This document shows, in pieces, positions 13,471 through 53,672 of a DNA stretch of 59,057 nucleotides (position 1 is its first letter; the number at the start of each line of letters is the position of its first letter). Source of the stretch: a virus. Lineage: Duplodnaviria; Caudoviricetes. The notes beneath the pieces were generated by a model that saw only the letters and a program-made list of their open reading frames with translations, had not been told where the DNA came from and ran no database searches. The position numbers and the translations under genes were made by a program. The stretch covers positions 1 through 59,057 of the IMG/VR virus record IMGVR_UViG_3300037524_000403; one strand, given 5' to 3'.

Positions 13471-13962
13471 GTGCTTTCATTTGAAGAAGCCCATCGTCTT
13501 TGGTTCTACGACGAAGAAACTGGGATTTTTACGTGGAAGACCCCTCCTATTGCGACGGTGAAGGTAGGCGACAGGGCGGATCACCCGTGGGGCGTAAGAG
13601 CCCGCCGTGTAATGTCCAAGGGCAAGAAGTATTTTGCTCATAGAGTTGCTTGGCTAATGGTCCACGGAGAATGGCCAAATGCCCCCATCGATCACATAGA
13701 TTGCAACGCAAGCAATAATGCTCTGAATAATCTTAGGCTTTGTACGCCAGCACAAAATTCCTGGAACAGGGCTGCCTCAGCAAACAACAAGACAAGTGGA
13801 AGAAAGGGTGTTTGCTACGACAGGTTTTCTAATAGGTGGGCTGCTTACATGAACGCCCACGGCAAGAGGGTACTTAAAAGATCATTCAAAACAAGAGAAG
13901 AGGCTGAGGCTGCCCATGCAGAGGCAGCTCGAAAGCATCACGGGCAGTTCGCTAGGTTCTAG
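13471..13962 (+). CDS. HNH endonuclease with AP2-like C-terminal domain
   Basis: AHRVAW, IDHIDCNASNNALNNLR, SGRKGV and HHGQFAR motifs. Confidence 0.88.
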   Translation: MLSFEEAHRLWFYDEETGIFTWKTPPIATVKVGDRADHPWGVRARRVMSKGKKYFAHRVAWLMVHGEWPNAPIDHIDCNASNNALNNLRLCTPAQNSWNRAASANNKTSGRKGVCYDRFSNRWAAYMNAHGKRVLKRSFKTREEAEAAHAEAARKHHGQFARF

Positions 13963-14223: not shown

Positions 14224-14709
14224 ATGGCATTCGCTGCTGCGATAGGCCCGATCATTGGAGGTATTGCCTCCATAGCGGGGGCAATGATTTCAGCCCGCGC
14301 GATGCAGCAGCAGGCCGATGCCCAGGAGGAGATTGCTGAGTACAACGCCGCCCGTGAGCGTGAGAAGGCTGCCCTTGCTCAGGCTAAGGGCGCTCTAGAG
14401 TCCAGCAAGAAGGGCAAGGAGTATGACCGCGCCTCGGCACAAGCCCGTGCGGTGCAAGCCCAATCTGGCGTCTCCACGACGGAAGGCACGCCTCTTCTCC
14501 AGCAGGAAGACTTTGCTGCTCAGAAGTTTTGGGACCAAAATATCATAATGAGCGACGCAATTATCGAACAAAGGGACCGATTAAACAAAGCTGAAATCAC
14601 AAAATACGAAGGTGCCGTCCAGGCTCAAGCTTCAAGAGCGCAAGCGACGGCCTCCTTAATAGGAGGGGTGGCGAGCGGTGTTAAGGGACTGGCGTCGGCG
14701 TTCGGATGA
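14224..14709 (+). CDS. Internal virion/ejection protein (T7 gp14-like)
   Basis: Hydrophobic Gly/Ala N-terminus, AQSGV...GTPL motif, Ala/Gln-rich helix. Confidence 0.75.
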   Translation: MAFAAAIGPIIGGIASIAGAMISARAMQQQADAQEEIAEYNAAREREKAALAQAKGALESSKKGKEYDRASAQARAVQAQSGVSTTEGTPLLQQEDFAAQKFWDQNIIMSDAIIEQRDRLNKAEITKYEGAVQAQASRAQATASLIGGVASGVKGLASAFG

Positions 14710-15194
14710 CATACGAAGAGGCTAACCGCCTATGGCGGTACGATCCAACAACCGGCTTCCTGCATTGGAAGATCAAGCCGTACAAGAGCCGCCAAAATCC
14801 GGGTGACAGGGCTGATAGCTCTATAAAGAGATACCGAGTCACACACTACAAGGGCGTGAATTATCTAGCTCATAGAGTTGCTTGGCTTCTCACTTACGGT
14901 GACTGGCCGGAAAAGAACATAGACCACATCGACAACGATGGTCACAACAACAAGATCGAGAATCTTAGGCTTTGTGAAAGATGGCAAAATTCCGCGAATA
15001 GGCGGAAACCGTCCAACAATAGTTCTGGGTTCAAGGGAGTGAGTTGGGTGGCCAGAAAGGGGCGTTGGAGGGCATCTCTTATGGTGAATGGAAAGTCGGT
15101 TTTCCAGAGAACATTCAAGACACCAGAAGAGGCTTACGACGCATATTGCCGAGAGGCTGCTAAGCATCATGGCCACTTTGCGAGGGTCGCTTAA
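14706..15194 (+). CDS. HNH endonuclease with AP2-like domain (paralog of 13471..13962)
   Basis: AHRVAW, IDHIDNDGHNNKIENLR and SGFKGV motifs. Confidence 0.88.
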   Translation: MTYEEANRLWRYDPTTGFLHWKIKPYKSRQNPGDRADSSIKRYRVTHYKGVNYLAHRVAWLLTYGDWPEKNIDHIDNDGHNNKIENLRLCERWQNSANRRKPSNNSSGFKGVSWVARKGRWRASLMVNGKSVFQRTFKTPEEAYDAYCREAAKHHGHFARVA

Positions 15195-18061: not shown

Positions 18062-21000
18062 TTGGACAAGAAATTCCAGACTGAGATTGCACCTGGCGAG
18101 CCTTCCTTTGAGGAAGAGGCGGTACTGCCACCGATTGAAGTTCCAAACACGGAGGAGCCTGAGCCTGCATCAGAGCTTGGCCAAAGTGAGTTTGGCGTAG
18201 GTGATGCTCTTCCTCCCGGCCTTACCGTTGATGAGCAAGCCTCCCCCAGCGATATTTTCATTGATGAGGGCGAGGAAGCCCTTAGGCAGGAGCAAGGTCT
18301 GGAGGCCTTGAAGGGCCTAGTGATCTTAGAGGATCGCAGCCGGAAGCTGCGCGAGACTGGCAAGACGCTTGGCAGCATTCTGGATAAAGCCGCTCGTGAC
18401 CCAGGCCTAAAGCCGATTGTCCCCTTAGATGTTCTGGAGGAGTCGTTCCCAGACCAGAACGTGATGCAGCAAAGGTTGGCTCCGACAGAGGAGCAGCGTC
18501 AGAAGTTTGCGCTTGAGTCTGTTGGCATGGGCCACTGGGCTCGTGCTTGGGGCAATCACCTCATTATGGAGGGCAAGGGCCTCAAGGCTAAGGGCCAAGA
18601 GGCATTTGGGGAATCTCTGATTCAGCAGGGCCAGTGGTACGTCGCCAACGCCCCCAAGAGGGACGTGGAGCTTTTTGCTGAGATTGATTCTGTCAGTAAG
18701 GGCTTCCAATGGGGTGCTGAATCCGCTGAGGAGGGCGCGGCATCCTCTTTGCCTTACCTTGCGATGGGTGCTGTTGCTAAAGCTCTCAGCCTTGGCGCAA
18801 CCCTCCCTATGGTTGTTGCGGGCCAAAACTCTGGATCTGGTCAGGTTGTCCTCTCTTTGGAGGAGATGCGGGACGAGTTCGACCGCTTGGCTTTTGAGGC
18901 TGAGGACGCGGGCCAAGGCAAGATGGCCCAATACTACAAGTATCAGGCCAAGAACATGGACCCTGGTAATCACCAAGCCCTGGTTCAGTCCTTTGGCGTT
19001 GTTGTTAGCGGCTTGAATGTCGCTACAGAAAGGGTGGCTATTTTCAACTCAGCCCCCAAGCATTTGGTGGATGAGGCAAAGAAGATCCTCATTCGCAGGG
19101 CTGTTAGCCACATGGCCCTGAAGGGCGCTGGCGGCGGCTTCATGGAAGGCGTCACAGAGGTTCTTGAAGACTTCAGCACTCAAGTCGCGGCTATGAACGC
19201 AATGGGCCTTGATGCGTGGGTTTCCATGCAGGCCTCCGCTGCGGATATGCTGAAGCTGAAGGATCATCCTACCAAGGCAGGCGTTCAGTATCGCGGCGCT
19301 ACAGAGTCGTTCACCGCAGGTGCAGCCGCAGGCACGATGCTTGGTACGGGCGGCGCTGGGGTAGATGTTGCTCGCGTGGCACTGGCAGGCCGCAGGGGCT
19401 CCGCCACGGATGCTGGCGTTGGCGTAGATGGCCTCCCGACTGAGTTCCCCGCTCCGCTCCCCCCAGAGTTGATGCAGCCGCAGCAGCCCGCTGCCCCTGC
19501 CCAAGAGCCTGTCATTCTGGATGACGCTCAGTCCGCAAAGCTCAAAGAGTACCTTGCCAACCCTGCGAACCTCACCCGTCCCAAGGACTACAAGGCGATT
19601 GGGGAGGCGCTGGGGATACCGGAGGATAAGGTCCCCGCTGCCCTTGATAGCGCAGTAGAGGACGGGACTCTCCGCAAGGACAACCGTGGGATCTACCGCA
19701 GGAACAACGTAGAGCCCGCCAAGCCACTTATACCGGAAACTGGGGAGGCAGCCGGTGATCAGTTTATACTACCGGAGCCCGCCAGTGAGACGACGCAAGA
19801 GGCCCAACCGGAACTTGCCCAGTCAGAGGTGGTTCCTACTCCTGCCGGTGAGGTACAAGCTGGAGTGGCTGAGGCCCAGGCCGGGACAGATCAAGTATCC
19901 GTTGCCATTGACCCGGCCACTCAAATCCGTGAGATCGAGGGGCGTATAGAGTCCAAGCGCCAAGAGCTTGCTGATGTTCGCTCTGGCATCAAGGGGGCCT
20001 CCAAGGAAGAGCAGGCCCAGATCAAGGATCGCTCCGACTCCCTGCGCAAGGAGATCAAGGCCCTTCAAAAGGAACTGAAGGCTGTAGAGTCTGCCCCTGC
20101 CAGGGTGGCTCAGCCTCAGGAAACGGCTGCCCAGCCTACTCCACAGCAGGAACTAAAGGCGGCTCCCCAGCCTGAGTTCAAGCCTGAGGAGCGTAAGCAG
20201 GCGGAGGCGGCCACCCAGAAGGCTGCGGCTGAGTACCTTCCCGGCATTACGGAGCAAGAGGCCACACGTCTTAATGAGCTTGCCATTGACCAAGGCAAGT
20301 CTGTAGAGGATTCTCTTGAAAACCTATTCAAGGAATATGCGGAGAGCTTAGTCGGTGCCAACCCAGTTAACAACGCTACAGCGACGCCTCAACAATCTCC
20401 AGTACCTCAAGAGCGTGCGGGAGAAGGTGACAGACCCGCAGGCCAGGGAGAAGCTGATGCGGTACGAGAGGGCGATGCTCAGCCTGGCCAAGAAGGCACT
20501 GGCGGAGGAATCCTCGCCCGCCAAGATGTAATCCCGTTTGCCGTCTATAGGAACGAGCGTGCCCGCGCTGCCTTTAAGTTTGCAGAGAAGATTGAGCTTC
20601 GCCTGCGCGAGGCGTTGGGCCTTACAGAAGAGGCCAAGACCAAGCGGTTCATATCTAAAATTAAGCCCCTTACCAAGGACGGTAAGGCTATCCAGGTCAA
20701 GCTCTTTGACCGGACCCTTAAAGGTTTGTCCTCTACTGAGCAGGCGTTTGTTAGAGAGGCAGAGGGAGGTGGCAGCGGCCAACCCGTCTTTGCGTTTTAT
20801 AACTACGACACAAGCACGATTGCGCTCTCTTTATATGCCGGGACAGAGGCCGGTGATACTATCAGGTCATTCCTTGCGCACGAAGTCGTCCATGCCTTGG
20901 TTGACATTGGCGTCATCACTCGGGCGGAAGTTAAGCTCCTTGCTAAAGAAGCAGAGAAGTTCTCCCCAAGAGCGCTGAAAGAGATTGAGCGGGCCTATAA

Positions 21001-24000
21001 GACCCTCTACCGCCGCGAGTCCCCAGCCAGACTTACAGAGCTGATTGAAGAGGAAAAGGCTGCCTTCCTTGTCCAGGTCAACATGGACAACAAGCTCAAG
21101 GCAGAGGAGAGCCTGATCCGTGACATCCTGGATCGCATCAAGGAATTTCTTGATGGACTTCGCGCTGCCTTCCGTGGAGAGGGAGATCAGGAAAAGATCA
21201 CTTGGCTCGATGTTATCCAGACCCTGGTGGATACCAAGGTCGGCAGTGGGCAGGCTGGACCCTATGTCAATCAGGATGAACTGACTCGGGCGATCGAAAA
21301 GATCAGGGCGGATCTTGCAAAAGAGAAGCGCATCCCTGCTGCATCTGTTCTTAAGGCTATAGAGAAAGCCACGGACGAGCTTGCAGCCCAGCCTGCTCCA
21401 GTCGTCGGAACTAAGCGAGCAACCCTTTCTATCCCAGGCCTAAAGCGCCCCCTCTCTCCAGCAGAGGTGGCAGAGGCACGCCGCAAGGAACAGTCTGTCC
21501 TTGGCCCATTCCCGCCAAGCCCAGTCGTTGCGGATATGACGGGCCTTCCGCCGGTCGGTTTTCAAGCCGACATCCGGCACATCCTGAGCAAGCGCCAGGG
21601 CAAGGATGACGAGCGGTTTATGAAGATGCCGCAGTCGGAGCAGGAGGTTCGTGAGAACATCTCCCGCGTCCTGGAAGATCCTCACTTTGGCTACGTCTAC
21701 AAGACGGGCAACATCACGCTCATCCATCGGACAGATGAGTTTGACTACGTGGTTGCTGTGAAGCCAAAGGTATCAGGGTATGCAGATGCTGGCGGACAGT
21801 ACCTGGAAATCCCCACATCCTTTGTCCTCAAAAAGGGACAGATAGACCAAAGACTGATTGCGTCCTTGGAGGATGGCGGCCCTGAGAATTTATATTGGAG
21901 AAAGGGTGCGGCCGAGATTGACAGGTTGCTGTATATCGTTCGACAGGCCCGAGGCCAAGGCAGCAGCCCTTTCATTTCTCAAGCTATCACACAGCTCCAG
22001 AAAGAGCAACTGGCTCTCAAGGGCGTTAAGCCAAAGATCCTTGCCGCGCTTGCGCCGAGCCCAAACAATCCTAATCCCGTCAGGGGCCTCAACACCATCA
22101 TCCGGGAGTTGGCGGATGGAATGGGCGTGGTGCTCAAGCAAGGGCACAGCAAGAAATGGGGATACAAGTCTAAGGTCGGTGTAATCCGGCAAAAGCAGTA
22201 TTACGATTTTGCTGCTCTTTCCCAGAACCTTGTCCCGGTCATCAACCAGCGCTACGGCCAGGCCTACAGCGATCTCATTGCCAAGCACGCCACTGAGCTT
22301 GGAATGATGACCCAGACTTTGGACCCCGAGGTTGGGCACTACGAGTTCGTCCAGCTCTACCTCTCTGATCCGAATACTGCGATCCAGAAGGCTCCCAACT
22401 TCTACGAGGATTTTGAGGACTTCCTGGAAAGGAACAGGCCTAGCGACTTGCTGGCCATGCAGACGGCTCAGTACGCCTTCCAGGAATATCAAAAGGCTGA
22501 TCCTGTCGCTGCTGTAGAGAGCATGATCACTCCTGCGGATGGCACGACGAACGTAGATAAGGTCAAGAAGCAGATTGCCCGTGATGGCGTCTATGAGACG
22601 CTGAAGAACGGGTTCCTGCTGGTCTACTCCAACGTCATCTCCCGCTCCTCGCCCAACAAGAGCTTGGTGCGCGGCATCCTGAATGCTGACTTGGAAGCTA
22701 CCGGGGAAAAGCGCCAGCTTTTACCCTCACAAGATCCCGACAAGCTGTTCCGCATGATCCCCTACGCTCAGCAAGCGGGGACGATGGACATCAAGGAAGG
22801 CATTGAACTTCCCAACGGTCAGAAGATTAGCAAGGGCCTGCCTGAGATTTTGAGGACTGCGCTGGGGGATGATCGGACTGTGGCTGCCAGCCTGAAGGAA
22901 GGCAGCAAGTATTCCCACTTCCTGACCTACCTTGTCTCTCTCCGTGGCCGTCAGCTTTGGGACAAGTACGCGGCTGGTGAGCTAGAGCGCTCTCCCTGCG
23001 TCACCCCAAGGTCTGTGATGGATACTGCCATCCAGCAGCTTGAGGCCCAGTATCCTGAGTTTGTCCAGGCTCAAAAGGAGTTGAACAAGTTTACCCGTGG
23101 GATGCTGCGTCTCCGCCGTGAGATCGGGATGCTCACGGAGAAGGATTACCAGAACCTTTTGAAGGACAAATACTACGTCCCCTGGCAGCGCTCTTTTGAT
23201 GAGGAGATTGCTGTTCTCTTTGACAAGACTTCCGGCATCAACTCAGCCAAGTTTGATCAGAGGTTCCGTGGCTCGAATAGAGACATCATTGATCCGTTTG
23301 TCTCCCTAACCAAGGCTGTCTACGCCACCCGGAATGCCCATGCCCAGAACCGCTGGGTCAAATCCCTGATCAATCTTGCGGAGAGCACGGGGCCGGTGGG
23401 CGGCAAGTTCGTGGAGAGGATTAGCGCTCAGCAGCTTAAGGCCATGAACGTCAGCATTGACGAGGCCATTACGGCTGTGGCCCGTGAGCAGGGGCTGAGC
23501 AAGCAGGATACCAATGACCTCTTGGTGGAGGTTGCTGCCGATCTAGGATCGGACGCAATTGCGACCTTGTTCCGCTCGTCCGTCATCAAGGCTGGCAACA
23601 AGCCGATTGCCTTCTTCATGGAAGATGGGAAGGTTCAGGCCGTCCAGATCAACGACGCTGGCACGGCTCAGATGCTCTTTGACTCCATCAACCTGATGAA
23701 CAATGACGCAAGCAATTGGCTAATACAGGCATTCTCTCTAACAACGCAGATACAGCGCGCAACCATCGTCACCAGCATCCCCTACATCTTTGCCACCTCG
23801 ATGCGAGACTTCGTGGCTGCTCCCAGCTACGAGCGCCGGATGGTTCCGTTCTTCTCTCAAGCCAGCGGAGCCCTCAAGATATTCCGGGGAGATCCACTCC
23901 TTGCTGAGTACGTTCGTGCCGGTGGCTTGATGGGTGGTCCCGTCTCCCACGGTATGGATCAGCGTAAGCTGGACGAGGGGATCGATAAGCTCGTGGCGCT

Positions 24001-26056
24001 GGGCTACGGCGTGGATAAGAGCACGTCTCTGTCAGACTTCTTTAGAAAATGGTCTACCAGACTAGAATACACGGAAACCTCAACCCGCATTAAGCTCTAC
24101 GAGCACGCTAAGAACAGAGCGCTGAAGCAGGGCCTCTCGGAGATGGAAGCGCGGCTAGAGGCTGCGTTTTACGCCAACGATTATTCTGACTATGCCCTAC
24201 ATGGGATGCGGACGTATCCCATCCGCAAGATGATCGCCTTTTGGAACGCCTCTCTCCGTGGTGTGGAGCGGTTTGTCAAGACGGCCACCTCTCAGGGTGA
24301 TTACGGCACGAACTACCGGATGATCAATCCGTATCTCAAATACAAGTTTGGTCAGTTTGAGGGATGGTCAAAGGGCACCGGCAACGTCAAGGGTCAGGCT
24401 CTTGTGGGCGCTGGGAAGATCACAAGGAACGAGATCAACCAGCTTGATCAAAGTGCGGCTGCCTTTTTCTACTGGGTCTTCTTTGTCGGCGGCATCTCCA
24501 TGATGCTTTACAATATGTTTGGAGATGATGAGCGGTTGCGTGATGTGCCGGATGACATCAAGGCCACGCACTGGATCATCCCCACGGGCAAGATGCTCAA
24601 CCTATTCCCCAAGGACTCCCTATTCACAGACATCCTAAAGTCTATGGGTTTAACGGAAGATACGATCAACCGCTGGCCCAAGCCCTTTGAGTCTGCCTGG
24701 CTTGCCAACTTGATTGAGCGTCTGTTGCACGAGCAGCAAAAGGAAGACCCGAACTGGTTTACCAGGTTCAAGCGGGACTTCTTTGATGCAACGCTGCCGC
24801 CTATGACGCCAACGTGGCTGAGCCTGTACAATATTCTTGGCAGCGGCATAGACCCCATGTCCAAGAAGCCTCTTCTTTCTCGTAGAGAGCAGGCGCTAGA
24901 CCCCAAGGACCAGTACAAGCCTTACACCTCTGAGTTTGCAAAGTGGCTGGGCGAGAAGACGAATACCTCTCCCATTATGATCGATGCCTCGCTCAAGGCT
25001 CTAGGTACAACCTGGGCTCGTGACATTCTCACGCTCAACATCCCAGGCACGCCTTGGTACGACGATCGCAAGCCCATCCTTGGCACGGATGAGTACGTGA
25101 TCATGCGGCGCTTTACGTGGGCTGCCGGTAAGGGCTCTGAGGCCAACCGCAATCTCAAGGAGATGATGGGTGAGGAGGACCCGGTTGGGGGTGTGTTCAC
25201 CCGCCTCTCTGTCCCGTTCTCCCGTCTCGCCATGCGCTCCAAGACTTACGCGGAGCGGCTAAAGACATCCACTGCGGACTCGGTGAATAGATACCTGGCA
25301 GAGATGACCCCGCGAGAGCGGGGTTATTCAATTCTGATGGCTGGTTCTGCGGGCAGGGACTCAAAGCTGGAGAAGCTGGACCCGACGAATAGAGCCTATG
25401 AGATCGGCTCCAATGCCTACGCTCTCCAAAAGGAACTGACCAAGGGAACGCTTGTCCTGGACAAGGGCGGGAAGAAGGAAAGCCGCGTCCAGATTGATGC
25501 CCAGACGGAGGCCCGTGCCAAGAGCACGCTGATGCTGATCCAGGCTCAGGAGGCTCACAACGCTTTGGTCCTGACTGGAGAACCTGGCTACGCCAAGCGT
25601 GTCTTGATCGATGTGCAGCCTCTGTACGAGGAGCTGAAGCTGAGCGATCCGCAGATTTACGACGAGCTAAAGCGGAGGAACGAGAAGGCCAATGTTCTCC
25701 CGTTTGAAGGCATCAAGGCTGTGTGGCCTCAACTTCAAAGGCAATTGGAGAGTGATGAGGCATACAGGTTTGCGCAGGAGGGAAGGCCTGAGCAGGTCAA
25801 ATCCCTGATTAGGGATCTGTGGTTCAAGGCCAAGTACCCTGCAACCAAGATGATGAAGCTTGGAGGCCCCAAGCTTCCAGATACGACTCTCTACGAGGAT
25901 GGCTCACGCAATCCAAAGTTTGAGAAGTGGCCCGATCAGGACCGCATGGAACTGAACGAGGATGAGAGTGATGCAGCCGCGATGGCCGTCGATGAGAACT
26001 ACGGGAAAAAGATGATCGTCAAACCTAAGCCGCAACCAAGGGAGCAGGGGATTTAA
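18062..26056 (+). CDS. Giant internal virion/ejection polyvalent protein (gp16-like position), HEXXH metallopeptidase-like and LPD38-like regions
   Basis: 2664 aa; LAHEVVHAL zincin motif; YYVPWQR, AFWNASLRG and RWPKPFE motifs in the C-half; TTG start. Confidence 0.72.
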   Translation: MDKKFQTEIAPGEPSFEEEAVLPPIEVPNTEEPEPASELGQSEFGVGDALPPGLTVDEQASPSDIFIDEGEEALRQEQGLEALKGLVILEDRSRKLRETGKTLGSILDKAARDPGLKPIVPLDVLEESFPDQNVMQQRLAPTEEQRQKFALESVGMGHWARAWGNHLIMEGKGLKAKGQEAFGESLIQQGQWYVANAPKRDVELFAEIDSVSKGFQWGAESAEEGAASSLPYLAMGAVAKALSLGATLPMVVAGQNSGSGQVVLSLEEMRDEFDRLAFEAEDAGQGKMAQYYKYQAKNMDPGNHQALVQSFGVVVSGLNVATERVAIFNSAPKHLVDEAKKILIRRAVSHMALKGAGGGFMEGVTEVLEDFSTQVAAMNAMGLDAWVSMQASAADMLKLKDHPTKAGVQYRGATESFTAGAAAGTMLGTGGAGVDVARVALAGRRGSATDAGVGVDGLPTEFPAPLPPELMQPQQPAAPAQEPVILDDAQSAKLKEYLANPANLTRPKDYKAIGEALGIPEDKVPAALDSAVEDGTLRKDNRGIYRRNNVEPAKPLIPETGEAAGDQFILPEPASETTQEAQPELAQSEVVPTPAGEVQAGVAEAQAGTDQVSVAIDPATQIREIEGRIESKRQELADVRSGIKGASKEEQAQIKDRSDSLRKEIKALQKELKAVESAPARVAQPQETAAQPTPQQELKAAPQPEFKPEERKQAEAATQKAAAEYLPGITEQEATRLNELAIDQGKSVEDSLENLFKEYAESLVGANPVNNATATPQQSPVPQERAGEGDRPAGQGEADAVREGDAQPGQEGTGGGILARQDVIPFAVYRNERARAAFKFAEKIELRLREALGLTEEAKTKRFISKIKPLTKDGKAIQVKLFDRTLKGLSSTEQAFVREAEGGGSGQPVFAFYNYDTSTIALSLYAGTEAGDTIRSFLAHEVVHALVDIGVITRAEVKLLAKEAEKFSPRALKEIERAYKTLYRRESPARLTELIEEEKAAFLVQVNMDNKLKAEESLIRDILDRIKEFLDGLRAAFRGEGDQEKITWLDVIQTLVDTKVGSGQAGPYVNQDELTRAIEKIRADLAKEKRIPAASVLKAIEKATDELAAQPAPVVGTKRATLSIPGLKRPLSPAEVAEARRKEQSVLGPFPPSPVVADMTGLPPVGFQADIRHILSKRQGKDDERFMKMPQSEQEVRENISRVLEDPHFGYVYKTGNITLIHRTDEFDYVVAVKPKVSGYADAGGQYLEIPTSFVLKKGQIDQRLIASLEDGGPENLYWRKGAAEIDRLLYIVRQARGQGSSPFISQAITQLQKEQLALKGVKPKILAALAPSPNNPNPVRGLNTIIRELADGMGVVLKQGHSKKWGYKSKVGVIRQKQYYDFAALSQNLVPVINQRYGQAYSDLIAKHATELGMMTQTLDPEVGHYEFVQLYLSDPNTAIQKAPNFYEDFEDFLERNRPSDLLAMQTAQYAFQEYQKADPVAAVESMITPADGTTNVDKVKKQIARDGVYETLKNGFLLVYSNVISRSSPNKSLVRGILNADLEATGEKRQLLPSQDPDKLFRMIPYAQQAGTMDIKEGIELPNGQKISKGLPEILRTALGDDRTVAASLKEGSKYSHFLTYLVSLRGRQLWDKYAAGELERSPCVTPRSVMDTAIQQLEAQYPEFVQAQKELNKFTRGMLRLRREIGMLTEKDYQNLLKDKYYVPWQRSFDEEIAVLFDKTSGINSAKFDQRFRGSNRDIIDPFVSLTKAVYATRNAHAQNRWVKSLINLAESTGPVGGKFVERISAQQLKAMNVSIDEAITAVAREQGLSKQDTNDLLVEVAADLGSDAIATLFRSSVIKAGNKPIAFFMEDGKVQAVQINDAGTAQMLFDSINLMNNDASNWLIQAFSLTTQIQRATIVTSIPYIFATSMRDFVAAPSYERRMVPFFSQASGALKIFRGDPLLAEYVRAGGLMGGPVSHGMDQRKLDEGIDKLVALGYGVDKSTSLSDFFRKWSTRLEYTETSTRIKLYEHAKNRALKQGLSEMEARLEAAFYANDYSDYALHGMRTYPIRKMIAFWNASLRGVERFVKTATSQGDYGTNYRMINPYLKYKFGQFEGWSKGTGNVKGQALVGAGKITRNEINQLDQSAAAFFYWVFFVGGISMMLYNMFGDDERLRDVPDDIKATHWIIPTGKMLNLFPKDSLFTDILKSMGLTEDTINRWPKPFESAWLANLIERLLHEQQKEDPNWFTRFKRDFFDATLPPMTPTWLSLYNILGSGIDPMSKKPLLSRREQALDPKDQYKPYTSEFAKWLGEKTNTSPIMIDASLKALGTTWARDILTLNIPGTPWYDDRKPILGTDEYVIMRRFTWAAGKGSEANRNLKEMMGEEDPVGGVFTRLSVPFSRLAMRSKTYAERLKTSTADSVNRYLAEMTPRERGYSILMAGSAGRDSKLEKLDPTNRAYEIGSNAYALQKELTKGTLVLDKGGKKESRVQIDAQTEARAKSTLMLIQAQEAHNALVLTGEPGYAKRVLIDVQPLYEELKLSDPQIYDELKRRNEKANVLPFEGIKAVWPQLQRQLESDEAYRFAQEGRPEQVKSLIRDLWFKAKYPATKMMKLGGPKLPDTTLYEDGSRNPKFEKWPDQDRMELNEDESDAAAMAVDENYGKKMIVKPKPQPREQGI

Positions 26057-36274: not shown

Positions 36275-36766
36275 TTATCTACAGTTTCTGGATTTGGTAG
36301 ATATTTGGTCAAGTCTCTTCCTGTATTTCTTCACTGGAGCATCGACAGCCATGCCCATTTTGATCCTGTGATACATTAGGGCTTTGCGCCTATGGCAGAC
36401 ACGGCACCTTCTCTCTCCACTGCTCATGGTGAGCAGGTTTTCCTCGTTTAGTTCGTGCCCTTCGCGGCAATGGGTGTGGAGCTTTTTCATCGAACCCCTC
36501 TCCTTTGCCTGCCTCATGTTCTCAGCATGAGTGCCAACTTGCAGGTGTTGGGGATTGCAGCACGACCTGTTGTGGCAGGTGTGCATTACCTCAAGCCCTC
36601 TCATTATTGGCCCAACAAACAACTGATATGAAAGCCTGTGGGCAAAATGCTTCACGCTTTTGACTGACAAGGTTCCATATCCAGAATCTGTAATACGCCC
36701 TGTCCACAACCAACATCCGCTGATCGGCTCTGGGCTCACCCTTGAAAAGAAGTCTTCTTTACGCAT
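36275..36766 (-). CDS. HNH endonuclease
   Basis: GCWLWTG, AHRLSY and MHTCHNRSCCNPQHLQVGTHAEN motifs. Confidence 0.88.
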   Translation of the reverse strand: MRKEDFFSRVSPEPISGCWLWTGRITDSGYGTLSVKSVKHFAHRLSYQLFVGPIMRGLEVMHTCHNRSCCNPQHLQVGTHAENMRQAKERGSMKKLHTHCREGHELNEENLLTMSSGERRCRVCHRRKALMYHRIKMGMAVDAPVKKYRKRLDQISTKSRNCR

Positions 36767-48852: not shown

Positions 48853-49061
48853 CGGAAGAGAAAACCATCACTATCCCGGAATCCACCTATGCTGCCCTAT
48901 TGGGCCAGGCAGCCTTTCTCAGGGCCTCAGTCCATGCGCTGGGTGGAAGCTATGAGATCACCTTTGACAACATGCAGACCAATGGGACTGGTCCGATTGA
49001 GCTTAGGGGAGATCCGGTCAGAAAGACTATTTTTTGCAAGGTGGTGGAGCGGGAGACATGA
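48849..49061 (+). CDS. Hypothetical protein
   Basis: AGGAGG RBS; ATGA coupling. Confidence 0.5.
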   Translation: MTEEKTITIPESTYAALLGQAAFLRASVHALGGSYEITFDNMQTNGTGPIELRGDPVRKTIFCKVVERET

Positions 49062-49342
49062 CCCCCGAGGAACGCGCGAAAGACATCTCGTCTCTGGTCA
49101 GAGTGGATGCGGACGGGCGATTGATGTTCGACGGGCAGGATAACAACCCCGAGTGCTTGCTGACAGATGCCATAGCCGCCGCCATTCGCGAAGCCATCCT
49201 CGCAGAACGTGAGGCATGTGCGAGCTTGGCGCGTGAATTGGATATGCCGGACGATCTAGAGCCGCCGACACATACATTTATTGAAGGCTGGCAGAGCGCC
49301 TGCGCCCACATCGCCGCCGCCATCCGTGCAAGAGGCTCTTGA
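49058..49342 (+). CDS. Hypothetical protein
   Basis: AEREACA...IAAAIRARG, a common small phage protein pattern. Confidence 0.55.
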   Translation: MTPEERAKDISSLVRVDADGRLMFDGQDNNPECLLTDAIAAAIREAILAEREACASLARELDMPDDLEPPTHTFIEGWQSACAHIAAAIRARGS

Positions 49343-49367
49343 CGCGCGCATCTGCCTGATATATACA
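49339..49367 (+). promoter_or_regulatory. Sigma70-type promoter for the putative sRNA
   Basis: TTGACG-N17-TATACA. Confidence 0.6.
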
Positions 49368-49373
49368 CCTAAC

Positions 49374-49487
49374 ATCAGCGCAAGTTCCGCGCTGGACGAG
49401 TTAGCCTGGTCAGGGCTTAATCTGGCCTCTCCTCATGGCTGAAGAGAGAAAAGCCCGGTAGGATCAAGAGATCCCGCCGGGTTTTTT
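49374..49487 (+). ncRNA. Putative multi-target antisense sRNA (~114 nt)
   Basis: Promoter, three hairpins and a terminator; 49427-49443 is complementary to six RBS boxes. Confidence 0.55.
49449..49487. terminator. Bidirectional intrinsic terminator
   Basis: AAAAG-CCCGG..GGATC-AAGA-GATCC..CCGGG-TTTTTT between convergent operons. Confidence 0.75.
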
Positions 49488-49767
49488 ACGTAAAAGCCAT
49501 TGATTTTTCTTGGGAACCTAAAAATCAGGCCCGAGTCATGGGCCACCCCCGCTACACATTTGTAGGGCGCTCTCCGTCATCTGCATTGGTGTTAGCGGCT
49601 AATGTCAGCCGCATTGGTGTTCATTGATTTACCCCGACCGTTTCACGGTGGGGGAGCTGCCGGGGATGCAAGGCAGCAAGACCCCTCCCAGCTAGGCCGG
49701 GAGGGGCGGTATTCATGGCGCAGGGGATGGAACCCGTAGAGGTTTTCTACAGGTTCACACCGCTGCG

Positions 49768-50088
49768 TCAGGCGTCTTCTATGTTGGCCTTGAAGTGGTT
49801 TTCGATCGTTGCGGTTTTACCGTGACGCTCTAACCATTCCAGGGCCTCATTTGGGGACAGGGGGCGGATGATGTTGGAGCCGCCGCAGTATCCCCCGCCA
49901 TAGGCTGGCTGGGAATAGGCGGATAGCGGGCCACCTGAACCACAGATGAACCAGTTCCCGCGCTTTGTGCGGTACAACTGTTCATGGACGTTCCTAAAGT
50001 CGGGACATCCAAGCCCGTTGTCATAGCTGGCAACAAGCTCTGCCGTCTCGGTGTCGTAACGCTTTCCGCCGATTACCTTTTTAGTCAT
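49768..50088 (-). CDS. Conserved hypothetical protein
   Basis: KKVIGGKRYDTETAE...LYRTKRGNWF; GGAGAG RBS. Confidence 0.7.
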   Translation of the reverse strand: MTKKVIGGKRYDTETAELVASYDNGLGCPDFRNVHEQLYRTKRGNWFICGSGGPLSAYSQPAYGGGYCGGSNIIRPLSPNEALEWLERHGKTATIENHFKANIEDA

Positions 50089-50163
50089 TTCACTCTCCAT
50101 TGGCTGACTCTCCCGTGGCGGGAGGCAATGCCCCCGGAATAGATCCAGGGGCATCACGTCGCG
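50089..50163 (-). promoter_or_regulatory. Structured leader E0 (long hairpin, short hairpin, TCAGCCAA-SD)
   Basis: Same architecture as E1-E4. Confidence 0.6.
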
Positions 50164-50262
50164 TCACAGATTAGACCGATAAGCAACGATCCAATAGATC
50201 AGAACAAGGCCAAGGCCAGCATAAGCCAAGGCTCCCATTGAGCAGCCCAGAAGCTCAAGCAT
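50164..50262 (-). CDS. 32-aa membrane peptide
   Basis: MLELLGCSMGALAYAGLGLVLIYWIVAYRSNL; AAGGA RBS. Confidence 0.45.
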   Translation of the reverse strand: MLELLGCSMGALAYAGLGLVLIYWIVAYRSNL

Positions 50263-50527
50263 ATTCCTTGCGCTCCTCATTAAGATGCTCGGCAATCTCC
50301 TGCCAATCAACGTCGTTCATTTCCCGATCTGAATCCATATCGGGGGTGCGTGCCTTTCCGGTGAAGTCTTGGAACAATTGGGTGCAGAACTCCTCCGCTT
50401 CGTCCGCGTCAATCTCATTGACTGAACGCCGCAGAAAGCGCTGCTTTTCCCGGTACATAGGCTCCTCGTTATCAATCCATAGATTGATCTGCCAAGTCGC
50501 CCAATTCTTCCATCCGTTGTAAGACAT
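50255..50527 (-). CDS. Conserved hypothetical protein
   Basis: YNGWKNWATWQINLWIDNE...VDWQEIAE. Confidence 0.7.
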   Translation of the reverse strand: MSYNGWKNWATWQINLWIDNEEPMYREKQRFLRRSVNEIDADEAEEFCTQLFQDFTGKARTPDMDSDREMNDVDWQEIAEHLNEERKEYA

Positions 50528-50607
50528 CGTTTTCTTCCTTTGGCTGAAATGGTGCAAAGCGCACCAGCAAGGGCACTAAGGGTTACCTCAGTGCCCAAGC
50601 TGCTAGG
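50528..50607 (-). promoter_or_regulatory. Structured leader E1
   Basis: 3 bp, UU/UU loop, 10 bp, GUAACN loop; short hairpin; TCAGCCAAAGGA. Confidence 0.7.
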
Positions 50608-50854
50608 CTTTACCGCCGTTGATTATCCTCAGAGCTGGCGAGACGCCGCGAAGTTTGCGGTGCTGCGCTGCTGTAAGGGCTTTGGGTTTAGCCGGTGCCC
50701 TTGGCTTTCGAGCTTTGGGCTTAGGCTCCACCGCTTTGCGCTGGGCGCGTGATCGCTGGAAATAATCCCAGAGATACCCGCCACAGATCAAAGGCGCGAA
50801 CGCCAAGAAAACCAGAACATCGAGTAGCGAGGTAGGTCTTTCTGCTGCTCTCAT
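50603..50854 (-). CDS. Small membrane protein
   Basis: TM segment LLDVLVFLAFAPLICGGYLW; ATGA coupling. Confidence 0.55.
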   Translation of the reverse strand: MRAAERPTSLLDVLVFLAFAPLICGGYLWDYFQRSRAQRKAVEPKPKARKPRAPAKPKALTAAQHRKLRGVSPALRIINGGKA

Positions 50855-51006
50855 AGCGACCTCCCAACGATCCAATCCATTGCGGCGGATTTGCTTGGAA
50901 GGTTGGCGACGACGTAAGGCTCAGTCTCGTAATCCCAGTCGAGCACAAGCCAACGCTTGGAAAACCTGGAATATTCAACGTAATACCCTAGAAACTCGAA
51001 TTTCAT
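50851..51006 (-). CDS. 51-aa hypothetical protein (below the ORF-track cut-off)
   Basis: MKFEFLGYYVEYSRFSKRWLVLDW...; GGAGAG RBS. Confidence 0.6.
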   Translation of the reverse strand: MKFEFLGYYVEYSRFSKRWLVLDWDYETEPYVVANLPSKSAAMDWIVGRSL

Positions 51007-51088
51007 TTAACTCTCCATTTGGCTGAACCCCGTGCAATAGCACAGGCGCAAGGTCTCAGAGAGTTACCCCTGAGACCAAGCGGCTAGG
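51007..51088 (-). promoter_or_regulatory. Structured leader E2
   Basis: Same fold as E1 with compensatory changes. Confidence 0.7.
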
Positions 51089-51991
51089 CTATGCTGCAAG
51101 TTCTAGATGCTCCAAGACTGCCGGAACGCTGGCTTTAGTCTTGAGAAAGTCCGCAGCCTTTTGAGCGGCGGAAGCGGCGGTAAAAATGAACCGCTTGTCA
51201 TTCTTCAAGGCTGTAAGCCAGTTGGCCAGATAAGCAGCATGTTGCTGCCCCTCGCCATCAATCCCTAGTTCCGCGCAAAGAAAGGCCGAGCAAAGCTCGG
51301 CTACCAATTCTTCGGCGGCATACTCAGGATTGCCAAAGCGGCCTTTATGCAAGTCACGTTTGCACCGTGACTCATGGTCGGTCCAATGCCCCAATTCGTG
51401 AAGCATTGTCGCGGCGTAGTGCCCAGGCGATTTGAACGCGCCACGAATTGGGAAGTCGATCGTGTCACGCGATGGTGAGTAGCAAGCCCTGGAAGATCCG
51501 AATCTTACATCGGCTCCAGTTGCCTTGACCCACGCATCAAAACCAGGATCAGAGATAGGGTCCGCAAGCTTTCTTGGTGCGGTCAGTCTCTCTGGTAGCC
51601 CATCACATTGGGCTACGTTGAACACGTAATAAGAACGCATCATCGTGATGCTGCGATCCTCTTCCGTGCCATCGTCCTGTTTTTCCTTCACGGTGAGCGG
51701 CTTTACAAAGACAATAAATGTCCCCTTCTCGCCGCCCTTGACCGTCCCGCCTGCTTCCTTTGCCTGCTTAAAGGTAAGGAATCCGGCGGTAGGCCAACCA
51801 TGAACCGCCTGGGCGATCCACAGCAGCAGCGTATTCACGCCGCTGTAGGGTCGCTTGGTCACCGCGTTATGAGGGTCGGCACTATGGCCAATCTCTTTCC
51901 AGGGCTTGACCCATGGCGGCAAGCCGCCTGATTCAAGCTGGGCGATGATCTGGTTGGTCACAGTCTGGTACACATCAAGCTTCTTTTCCAT
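51089..51991 (-). CDS. ardC: ArdC-like antirestriction protein (ssDNA-binding plus zincin domain)
   Basis: PWVKPW, YSGVNTLLLW, TFKQA, VFNVAQ, HELGHWT and YAAEELVAE motifs. Confidence 0.9.
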   Translation of the reverse strand: MEKKLDVYQTVTNQIIAQLESGGLPPWVKPWKEIGHSADPHNAVTKRPYSGVNTLLLWIAQAVHGWPTAGFLTFKQAKEAGGTVKGGEKGTFIVFVKPLTVKEKQDDGTEEDRSITMMRSYYVFNVAQCDGLPERLTAPRKLADPISDPGFDAWVKATGADVRFGSSRACYSPSRDTIDFPIRGAFKSPGHYAATMLHELGHWTDHESRCKRDLHKGRFGNPEYAAEELVAELCSAFLCAELGIDGEGQQHAAYLANWLTALKNDKRFIFTAASAAQKAADFLKTKASVPAVLEHLELAA

Positions 51992-52072
51992 CGTTCTATC
52001 CCTTTGGCTGAAGGTCCTGCATAGTGCAGGCTCAAGGTCTCACAGCGTTACCCATGAGACCAAGAGGCTGGA
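51992..52072 (-). promoter_or_regulatory. Structured leader E3
   Basis: Same fold as E1/E2. Confidence 0.7.
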
Positions 52073-52336
52073 CTATTCGAGTCTGTCAACGTAGAGCCTT
52101 ACCTTGATACCGTCCCGGCGATTGTTGCCCGTGACGGGATCAATGGGCCGGTCAATCTCTATTGAGATCCACTCGTTTTTGCCCCGGTTGATGTAGTTGA
52201 AGCCGCTTAGGGTCATACCACGATGACAGAGCTGGCCATATCCGCCGCGATATTCATATTCCGGGAATGATTCCATCTCCGCAAACAGTGCAGAGACTTG
52301 TTCCTCAGTCGCCGTGACGGTGTGAATAAGAGGCAT
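52073..52336 (-). CDS. Hypothetical protein
   Basis: GGAG RBS; first clear gene of the leftward operon. Confidence 0.6.
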   Translation of the reverse strand: MPLIHTVTATEEQVSALFAEMESFPEYEYRGGYGQLCHRGMTLSGFNYINRGKNEWISIEIDRPIDPVTGNNRRDGIKVRLYVDRLE

Positions 52337-52411
52337 TTTCTTCTCCATTGGCTGACGCTGCAATTTGCAGCCCGCTACCGTCTCAGCTCGAAAGCAAAGA
52401 CGGCAGCAGGC
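52337..52411 (-). promoter_or_regulatory. Structured leader E4
   Basis: Long hairpin with TTCG loop, CTGCA-AAT-TGCAG hairpin, TCAGCCAATGGAG. Confidence 0.6.
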
Positions 52412-52569
52412 CATAAATTGGAGATGGTAGAAGCGCCCCACGAATCCGCTCTTCGCGGCTCACTGGCACCTGTTGATGGGTACTCCATCGGTCCTAGTGG
52501 GGGATTGCGTTGTTTTCTGCCTGGTGGAGGGGTAGGGCTCGCAAGGCCGGAACGTGATTGAATATCACG

Positions 52570-52598
52570 AAGGTAACACAACGATACCCAATTGTCAA
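52570..52598 (-). promoter_or_regulatory. Promoter of the ArdC operon with operator
   Basis: TTGACA-N17-TACCTT, same -10 as the 42517 promoter; overlaps GGTAAC-ACAAC-GATACC. Confidence 0.75.
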
Positions 52599-52631
52599 CG
52601 GGGCAAGTGAATTAAACCAGGATCAATTGCC

Positions 52632-52943
52632 ATGACTTATCCGTGGCACAGGGAATATGAGGATCAAATGAACTACGATGAATCAAAGGCAAAGCCCAAA
52701 AAGGCCAAGGCTCCCGAGCCCATGAAATTGAAAGATGAAACGAGCTGGGTAGATCACATTGATAGCGCTTTCCTGCTCTTTGGCGTGGCAATCGCTATTA
52801 TCATCGTCCTGTTATTTGTGACAAAGCCGGACGCTCCCTCCCTTGAGGAGGCTTCAAGGCCTGCCGTGACTGAACCGGCAAAGCCTGGTGGCAAGCCCGG
52901 CGAGTCAGCCCAGGATGTATTTGATAGGAATTTCGGACGCTGA
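52632..52943 (+). CDS. Membrane protein
   Basis: TM segment AFLLFGVAIAIIIVLLFV. Confidence 0.55.
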   Translation: MTYPWHREYEDQMNYDESKAKPKKAKAPEPMKLKDETSWVDHIDSAFLLFGVAIAIIIVLLFVTKPDAPSLEEASRPAVTEPAKPGGKPGESAQDVFDRNFGR

Positions 52944-53066
52944 TGCGCACAGCAGCCGAAAGACTGGCCAAGGTTAGGGTGACATGGGGCACTCCGGCTC
53001 TAGCCTTGGCTCTTTCCCTCATACAACTTCTCGAAAAAATAATCTTGGAAGCCCACGAAAACGAAT

Positions 53067-53672
53067 ATGGCCAGAACTCTTGAAACAACAGTCCAAGAGA
53101 ACGCCAATATCCTTGCTGTTCCAAAGGGCAACCAAATAGACAGATACAAGCCTGATGCGAGGGAACTGGTAGAATACTCCCCAGAATTAGCCTCTTTTAT
53201 CCTGAGAGAGATAGGAAAGGGCAGAAGCCTAATTACAGTCTGCCAAGATGAGGGGATGCCACATCACGCCTCATTTCTCAGGTGGTGTCATGAGATGCCT
53301 GAATTGATGGACAGGTACTGCCATGCAAAGAAGCTCCGAGCGCACGCCAAGGCTGAAGAGGTATCAGCCCTCACTGACGCCTTAGATCCTGTAAATACTG
53401 GGAAAAATGAGGCTTACGTCACTGACATCAAGGCCAGAAACCTGCTGCGGATAGCAGAGCTAGGCGATCCAGCCTCATTCAGTCCTAAGATGCAGATGAT
53501 GCACCATCACTCAGGTGGCGTGGTCAGCATCACGATGGACCTGTCAGCACCACAGTCCCGACCGATAATTGACACGACTGCGAGCCAAGTACCTGAAACA
53601 CCTCAAATAGACGCGCCTCAGGTGGGCGACAGTGAGAAAAAGGGCGAGGGGGGTGGGGGGTCTACAGCTTGA
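53067..53672 (+). CDS. terS: Terminase small subunit (Sf6 gp1-like HTH)
   Basis: YSPELASFILREIGKGRSLITVCQDEGMP...FLRW. Confidence 0.75.
   Translation: MARTLETTVQENANILAVPKGNQIDRYKPDARELVEYSPELASFILREIGKGRSLITVCQDEGMPHHASFLRWCHEMPELMDRYCHAKKLRAHAKAEEVSALTDALDPVNTGKNEAYVTDIKARNLLRIAELGDPASFSPKMQMMHHHSGGVVSITMDLSAPQSRPIIDTTASQVPETPQIDAPQVGDSEKKGEGGGGSTA

Follow-up and report, generated by a model that had tools for sequence, protein, structure and literature searches.

A repeated two-hairpin RNA leader at the gene borders of a phage ArdC operon and its likeness to clustered type II hammerheads

Hammerhead ribozymes clustered beside prophage genes have been known since 2011 (Perreault et al., PMC3088659). 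According to the extract of that paper, they border individual prophage genes or small groups of genes, among them ardA in Agrobacterium tumefaciens, where the three hammerheads flanking the gene cleave in vivo in Escherichia coli; its authors propose processing into gene-length mRNAs, describe a pseudoknot between the tail of the type II form and loop I, and call the biological purpose unknown. Here we describe an RNA module that recurs in the ArdC anti-restriction operon of a phage, IMG/VR virus record IMGVR_UViG_3300037524_000403 (analysed over its full 59,057 nucleotides, hereafter the window). What is new is a module with the slot, tail and hairpin order of these ribozymes and no catalytic core. 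The clustered type II hammerhead of prophage anti-restriction operons is its closest analogue, and the window module is the same cassette border as the hammerhead module, minus core, stem II and cleavage triplet. We give even chances to the reading that it is a repeated intercistronic punctuation mark and insulator of the mRNA, a core-less counterpart of clustered prophage hammerheads in which a nuclease would make the cut.

Two hairpins and a fixed box before each cassette

Five leaders on the minus strand of the window (E0, E3, E2, E1 and E4; 52415-50089) have one common layout: a hairpin of 13-15 bp (hairpin 1), an abutting hairpin of 5-7 bp with a loop of 3-6 nt (hairpin 2), the box UCAGCCAA, a Shine-Dalgarno sequence (SD) and ATG. 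Each module begins at the preceding gene's stop codon, and the parts are closely spaced, with 0 nt between the hairpins in the model alignment, 1-4 nt between hairpin 2 and the box and a further 0-2 nt from the box to the SD. Three more copies (L060_a, L060_b and L060_d) lie in a 2.4-kb metagenome contig, L060, whose ArdC is 85% identical to that of the window. An earlier note on this DNA had described E1-E3 as a 3-bp outer stem, UU/UU, a 10-bp stem, a GUAACN loop, a short hairpin, TCAGCCAA, SD and ATG, and as a description of the sequence this is exact. The stems and loops stand as it read them; the UU/UU does not stand as a conserved internal loop, since these positions form standard pairs in 4 of the 8 copies, and hairpin 1 is for this reason better termed a 13-15 bp helix. 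The GUAAC loop and a 5' YAGCC are found in the five copies around ArdC (E1, E2, E3, L060_a and L060_b), while E0, E4 and L060_d lack both and keep the layout. YAGCC in the 5' flank and CAGCC in the tail repeat each other directly and are not complementary. Box and SD form the most conserved part of the module, UCAGCCAA being present in 8/8 copies. Across the window, TCAGCCAA occurs 12 times against 2.87 expected (a count reached by 0 of 100 shuffles), and SD and ATG follow five of these 12 sites, all of them leaders on the minus strand (50100-52355). A pattern for the hairpin matched the record three times and its reversed control not at all.

A covariance model (R1) was trained on E1-E3, as the earlier note had proposed, together with L060_a and L060_b. 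It recovered three untrained copies, E0 (34.6 bits), L060_d (32.2 bits) and E4 (24.4 bits). Pairing statistics were taken over all eight copies (five from the window, three from L060) aligned to R1, giving 166 pair cells. Standard pairs make up 92.2% of these, compared with 62.8% in shuffles (0 of 500 reach the observed value), and sliding the partners by 1-3 columns leaves 35-47% paired. Compensatory substitutions had been claimed from three copies; over eight, 19 of the 21 pairs change on both sides. The cells comprise 132 Watson-Crick, 21 G.U, 1 A.C, 8 U.U and 4 other, plus 2 with gaps. The large excess of G.U over A.C (21 to 1) bears out the observation that the G-U pairs work only on the mRNA strand, and implies that the fold is selected on the mRNA-sense strand; a function as duplex DNA does not fit this bias. 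Minimum-energy folds contain hairpin 1 in 8/8 leaders and hairpin 2 in 7/8, with z-scores of -2.9 to -5.4. A single-stranded DNA promoter of the plasmid leading-region type, as that mechanism is generally understood, was rejected because it is the coding strand, and not the template, that carries the wobble pairs. The general features of an integron attC-like site and of a tRNA-like RNase P substrate, compared by eye, do not fit the layout.

No Rfam family was found at E <= 10 in 49000-53500 or in one leader taken alone, nor at gathering scores over the whole window. A scan called no promoter-like sites inside E1-E4, and U-tract terminators were absent from the modules; one weak terminator-like site (5-pair stem, 52414-52400) lies within E0 and none in the other modules. 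By eye, no third helix or convincing pseudoknot was found in the modules, and loop-tail matches in the style of the type II hammerhead pseudoknot were of 3-4 bp, at chance level and inconsistent among copies.

Further copies were sought among ArdC relatives, comprising 6 viral loci, 38 genome loci and 80 of 98 metagenome loci. On the sense strand at E < 0.01, R1 found nothing beyond the window and L060 in 126 ArdC-related sources (815,818 bases), and 0 matches over 8 further loci (some 140 loci in all model searches). Pattern searches of IMG/VR viral contigs returned 11 loci for the hairpin, none with a real stem (best 8/10 pairs), 63 loci for GUAAC..CCTG..box, none of the window type, and 9 for box and SD, none with hairpins. 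Among 401 alphaproteobacterial genomes, a pattern that recovers just 3/8 known module copies gave three matches against five for its reversed control, none window-type. Viral-contig relatives of other genes numbered one locus for TerS, 0 for orf87 and 0 for DUF7249.

Two other repeated stretches were seen in these searches. About 50 of the loci L149-L211 (for example, L151:3955-4060) carry a near-identical stretch of ~100 nt that fits the GTAAC..CCTG..TCAGCCAA pattern; it is unrelated to the module, and a common phage group probably carries it as a conserved gene or RNA. A distant TerS relative carries a 66-nt repeat (L021:273-338 and 964-1029, 89% identical) that shows, on the opposite strand, a hairpin and a conserved stretch before ATG, another repeated structured leader by packaging genes.

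Type II hammerheads in the same slot

A GC-rich viral contig of 18.8 kb (L017), whose ArdC is 45% identical, has small genes around its ArdC with five type II hammerheads set between them. Four of the five are listed by RF02276 at 21-28 bits, against a gathering score of 37, and would for that reason be missed by standard annotation; the fifth was called by eye, and the full hammerhead core is present in 5/5 leaders, also by eye. Pairs fill 97.9% of cells over their three helices, with covariation in stems III and I. Behind every one of them stand (GU)CAGC(C/A)A, SD and ATG, and the Rfam type II consensus (RF02276) itself ends in an unpaired AGCCaAAg, which is the box TCAGCCAA of the earlier note. 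A further type II hammerhead (L115:3915-3993, equal to L116:5045-5123; 42 bits with a hammerhead model, R2) lies behind a small gene downstream of another phage ArdC, with a tail that lacks the CAGCCAA box.

The window modules carry the unpaired 3' tail of the type II hammerhead, in the form of the box, in 8/8 copies. The remaining hammerhead parts were not found. Searched at E <= 10 over 49000-53500 and on a single leader, Rfam returned no hammerhead, and R2 gave none in the window at E <= 1; the core CUGANGA ... GAAA is absent from the modules by eye. There is no stem II or three-helix junction, as only two hairpins recur among copies (extra pairs across the flanks of hairpin 1 appear in 4 of 8 minimum-energy folds, those of E0, E2, E4 and L060_d, and differ from copy to copy), and with 0 nt between the hairpins there is no NUH cleavage triplet between counterparts of stem III and stem I.

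Cassette borders and the surrounding operon

Minus strand 52415-49716 is a compact operon in which each cassette has a leader spanning from the previous stop codon to ATG (Table 1), and comparison with L060 supports the idea that the modules delimit cassettes of one or two genes. By blastn, L060 and the window align only over E3 and ArdC (77%), the end of the 32-aa hydrophobic open reading frame (ORF; 89%, to L060 1635-1679), the E0 tail (93%), a piece behind orf106 and the flank downstream. The two differ in the ORF ahead of ArdC, in the genes that follow ArdC and in the last gene, and at the place of orf51 and orf83 L060 holds an unrelated 118-aa gene. E4 and orf106 are an insertion in the window relative to L060, between two copies of TGACGC (50166-50161 and 49770-49765, minus strand), a direct repeat that includes stop codons. 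The last gene of L060 is missing from the window; that breakpoint lies in the loop of hairpin 2, within which the truncated copy E5 stops (77% identity to L060 1673-1728 over 61 columns, blastn) before a terminator-like hairpin, the L060 counterpart of which has a U run. Because the genes between modules differ between the window and L060, relatives do swap genes between the repeats, as the earlier note had asked to be checked; the evidence comes from one relative. Its broader proposal of a cis RNA element that makes each gene a cassette agrees with the covariation, the strand bias and this difference in cargo.

Table 1. Module copies, operon features and the hammerheads of contig L017. Positions are those of the window unless a contig is named.
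Feature	Position	Strand	Details
E0	52415-52337	-	Leader of orf87; hairpin 1 52409-52372, hairpin 2 52371-52357, box UCAGCCAA 52355-52348, SD; fold z -4.63
orf87	52336-52073	-	Cargo ORF with SD; no Pfam or PHROG match; L060 holds a different ORF here
E3	52072-51992	-	Leader of ArdC; hairpin 1 52066-52031 (GUAAC loop), hairpin 2 52030-52016, box 52011-52004; ortholog L060_a
ArdC anti-restriction gene	51991-51089	-	ArdcN and MPTase-PolyVal (Pfam E 1.3e-36, 1.2e-46); phrog_7245
E2	51088-51007	-	Hairpin 1 51082-51047 (GUAAC loop), hairpin 2 51046-51029, box 51026-51019
orf51 and orf83	51006-50851 and 50854-50603 (cassette 51006-50603)	-	Two overlapping small genes; no Pfam/PHROG family
E1	50607-50528	-	Hairpin 1 50601-50566 (GUAAC loop), hairpin 2 50565-50551, box 50547-50540
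DUF7249 gene	50527-50255	-	Pfam PF23907, E 6.4e-10
32-aa hydrophobic ORF	50262-50164	-	Overlaps the DUF7249 gene; same cassette (50527-50164)
E4	50163-50089	-	Hairpin 1 50157-50125, hairpin 2 50124-50110, box 50107-50100; fold z -4.14
orf106	50088-49768	-	Cargo gene; with E4, absent from L060
E5, truncated sixth copy	49771-49716	-	Hairpin 1 49756-49730, 5' half of hairpin 2 49724-49716; homologous to L060_d
Terminator-like G+C-rich hairpin	49706-49682	-	Closes the operon; read in the sequence, not listed by the consensus scan
L060_a	L060 168-247		Module copy
L060_b	L060 1142-1221		Module copy
L060_d	L060 1677-1755		Module copy
L017 type II hammerheads	L017 1645-1740, 2321-2411, 2800-2892, 3277-3370, 5324-5409	+	Rfam RF02276 and by eye

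The 59-kb virus record has the gene set of a temperate podovirus-like phage (T7-type portal, capsid, integrase, CI/Cro-like helix-turn-helix proteins and a GcrA-like regulator), and its ArdC operon, which runs on the other strand, is flanked by replication genes and the small terminase. Among GenBank phages no DNA relative of the window was found, and ArdC identity is at most 45%. Between E0 and a divergent plus-strand gene at 52632 lie ~215 nt of non-coding sequence (52416-52631), in which TTGACA can be seen by eye at 52597-52592, but the scan listed no promoter. Domains of the ArdC type are typical of injected polyvalent proteins; the window also encodes a 2664-aa polyvalent virion-module protein with an LPD38 domain (18062-26056, plus strand), and ArdC here is a separate gene. 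Four homing-endonuclease-like ORFs, one LAGLIDADG-type and three HNH_3 (209-1639, 13471-13962, 14706-15194 and 36275-36766), are scattered over the structural and integrase regions.

Possible roles in the mRNA and comparison with known systems

On the favoured reading the module most likely works like the clustered type II hammerheads in the same slots of other ArdC/ArdA phage operons, because slot, hairpin order and tail are common to both. The long hairpin abuts the short one, and the module then offers the next gene a fixed single-stranded UCAGCCAA with an SD. Cutting would take place where the two hairpins meet or close by, giving the upstream cistron a protective, presumably stabilising 3' hairpin and the downstream cistron a 5' hairpin with a standard translation start region, and each cassette could then be expressed independently of its neighbours. 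As there is no hammerhead core, any cut would need a nuclease of the host or the phage. RNase III suggests itself most readily, since stacking of the abutting hairpins could yield about two helical turns: compared with the roughly two turns of imperfect double-stranded RNA of a T7-type site, hairpin 1 supplies 13-15 bp, and 19-22 bp in total are reached only if hairpin 2 stacks on it, as the 0-nt junction suggests.

A number of points weigh against such cutting, or limit what has been said for it. With its 13-15 bp, hairpin 1 alone falls short of the length of classical RNase III substrates. Unpaired bases that do not vary (GUAAC in 5/8 copies, UCAGCCAA in all) exceed the needs of a stabiliser hairpin and point to a specific partner. 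Across leaders the predicted unpaired probability of the SD ranges from 0.10 to 0.87 with no consistent pattern, and a common theme of SD exposure or sequestration was rejected. The module is present in two phages only, in a thin sample, and its pairing figures come from an alignment fitted to R1, with five of the eight rows having trained that model and the stems of E2 and E3 nearly identical. Finally, four wetland RNA libraries contain contigs that match, with full identity, parts of ArdC and of orf87 as well as 50028-50176, and the last of these crosses the whole of E4 uncut; contigs of this kind cannot show RNA ends, may reflect DNA carry-over and leave parts of the operon uncovered, and they say only that operon sequence is present in RNA libraries.

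Nearly as good as the favoured reading is one without a cut, which we regard as a serious possibility without thinking it probable. The module would then be a passive insulator with a common translational operator, the hairpins blocking exonucleases and uncoupling ribosomes or RNA polymerase between cistrons, and UCAGCCAA with its SD serving as a shared start region for the ribosome or as the target of one trans-acting RNA-binding factor that regulates all cassettes together. It would account for box and SD being the best conserved part in every copy, and the contig that spans E4 uncut sits well with it, as does a helix of 4-5 bp that can pair pre-box bases with the SD in 4/8 leaders. Moreover, six AT-rich phage contigs of unrelated genome carry the same box and SD free of hairpins, with 3-4 occurrences at each locus (L140, L143, L144, L145, L146 and L148; for example, L144:697, 1478, 2095 and 2509). 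There the order is a TTGAC-type promoter-like site, CAGCCAA, (A/T)(A)GGAGA and ATG, with ~23-25% G+C at the leaders, and the genes behind them include GGACT-like and Amidoligase_2 proteins. This occurrence behind promoter-like sites suggests a function for the box by itself, either in translation or at the 5' end of the mRNA; to our knowledge, the box shows no apparent colinear pairing with the 3' end of 16S rRNA. However, the absence of a cut leaves unexplained both the strict 0-nt junction and the parallel with hammerhead modules, the only known activity of which is cleavage; the accessibility of the SD varies among copies, and no candidate factor was found.

We think it unlikely that the GUAAC-type module represents a novel class of self-cleaving ribozymes, or a dedicated phage nuclease signal, replacing the hammerhead in its slot. 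The slot, the order of two hairpins and the 3' tail are those of type II hammerheads, covarying stems stand beside invariant unpaired 5' AGC(C), GUAAC and UCAGCCAA, and no known RNA family matches; yet the three copies without GUAAC loop and 5' AGCC keep the layout, no third helix or convincing pseudoknot is apparent by eye, and the copies are too few to define a core. It is similarly doubtful that an unrecognised self-cleaving RNA or dedicated-nuclease target of this type supplanted the type II hammerhead with the 3' tail and slot retained.

Rather improbable, in our view, is that the repeats act mainly as DNA, as linkers for the shuffling of cassettes by recombination (PeSL-like or integron-like), with an incidental RNA fold. 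PeSL cassettes mediate such shuffling in T4-type phages, according to the extract of PMC2839356, and in the two phages compared here the gene content between modules differs, one breakpoint falls within hairpin 2 and the insertion of E4 and orf106 stands between copies of a 6-bp direct repeat. Against this, the stems diverge and stay complementary and G.U outnumbers A.C 21 to 1, neither of which is expected of a duplex-DNA site; conserved stretches are only 8-20 nt long, and the modules hold no promoter-like site or U-tract terminator. The two adjacent hairpins, separated by no more than one base, also call to mind the put RNA of phage HK022, a two-hairpin antitermination signal, but processive antitermination acting on RNA polymerase is very improbable for five copies within 2.3 kb, each with its own cassette, instead of a single copy behind the promoter, with no terminators found between the operon genes by the scan, no sequence likeness and no Rfam match.

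Among described systems, the RNase III sites of T7 are irregular hairpins between early genes of anti-restriction type, where the upstream mRNA keeps a 3' hairpin. Compared with these, the window modules have a shorter helix, an internal loop that is not conserved, and a fixed loop motif with a downstream box. The likeness to CUP repeats put forward in the earlier note, that of repeats before ard genes on IncN plasmids, was rejected: as the extract of PMC6289460 describes them, CUP elements are DNA operators at promoters, sites for the ArdK repressor and not RNA structures, whereas the stems of the window compensate with a one-strand G.U bias and contain no promoter-like site. PeSL cassettes of T4-type phages resemble the modules as short repeated regulatory units bordering nonessential genes, with content differing among close relatives. 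However, a PeSL, in the extract of PMC2839356, is a sigma-70 promoter with a terminator stem-loop; the modules have no promoter-like site or U-tract, and were not assigned to this class, and selection on them, unlike that on PeSL, acts on the RNA strand.

The window modules and the clustered type II hammerheads (RF02276; PMC3088659) both occupy slots between single genes or short blocks in anti-restriction operons, and both consist of a long variable hairpin, a short hairpin and an unpaired AGCCAA(A)G tail ahead of the SD, with covarying stems. The order of parts is stem III hairpin, cleavage site, stem I hairpin, core, tail and SD in the type II hammerhead, and hairpin 1, hairpin 2, tail and SD in the module, which, unlike the ribozyme, has no CUGANGA/GAAA core, no stem II and no cleavage triplet. 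As borders of swappable cargo genes beside ArdC, the modules offer a practical handle for finding anti-defence candidates. They also allow a direct comparison with the hammerhead, in that hairpin-capped ends and cassette-independent expression may arise without self-cleavage. If the same ends do arise in this way, the function of phage hammerheads would be mRNA punctuation and insulation; if not, the module becomes a candidate for a new ribozyme or nuclease signal. Should the module have replaced the hammerhead, what selection preserves in these operons would be the punctuation of mRNA into hairpin-capped, uniformly translated cassettes, and not the hammerhead itself.

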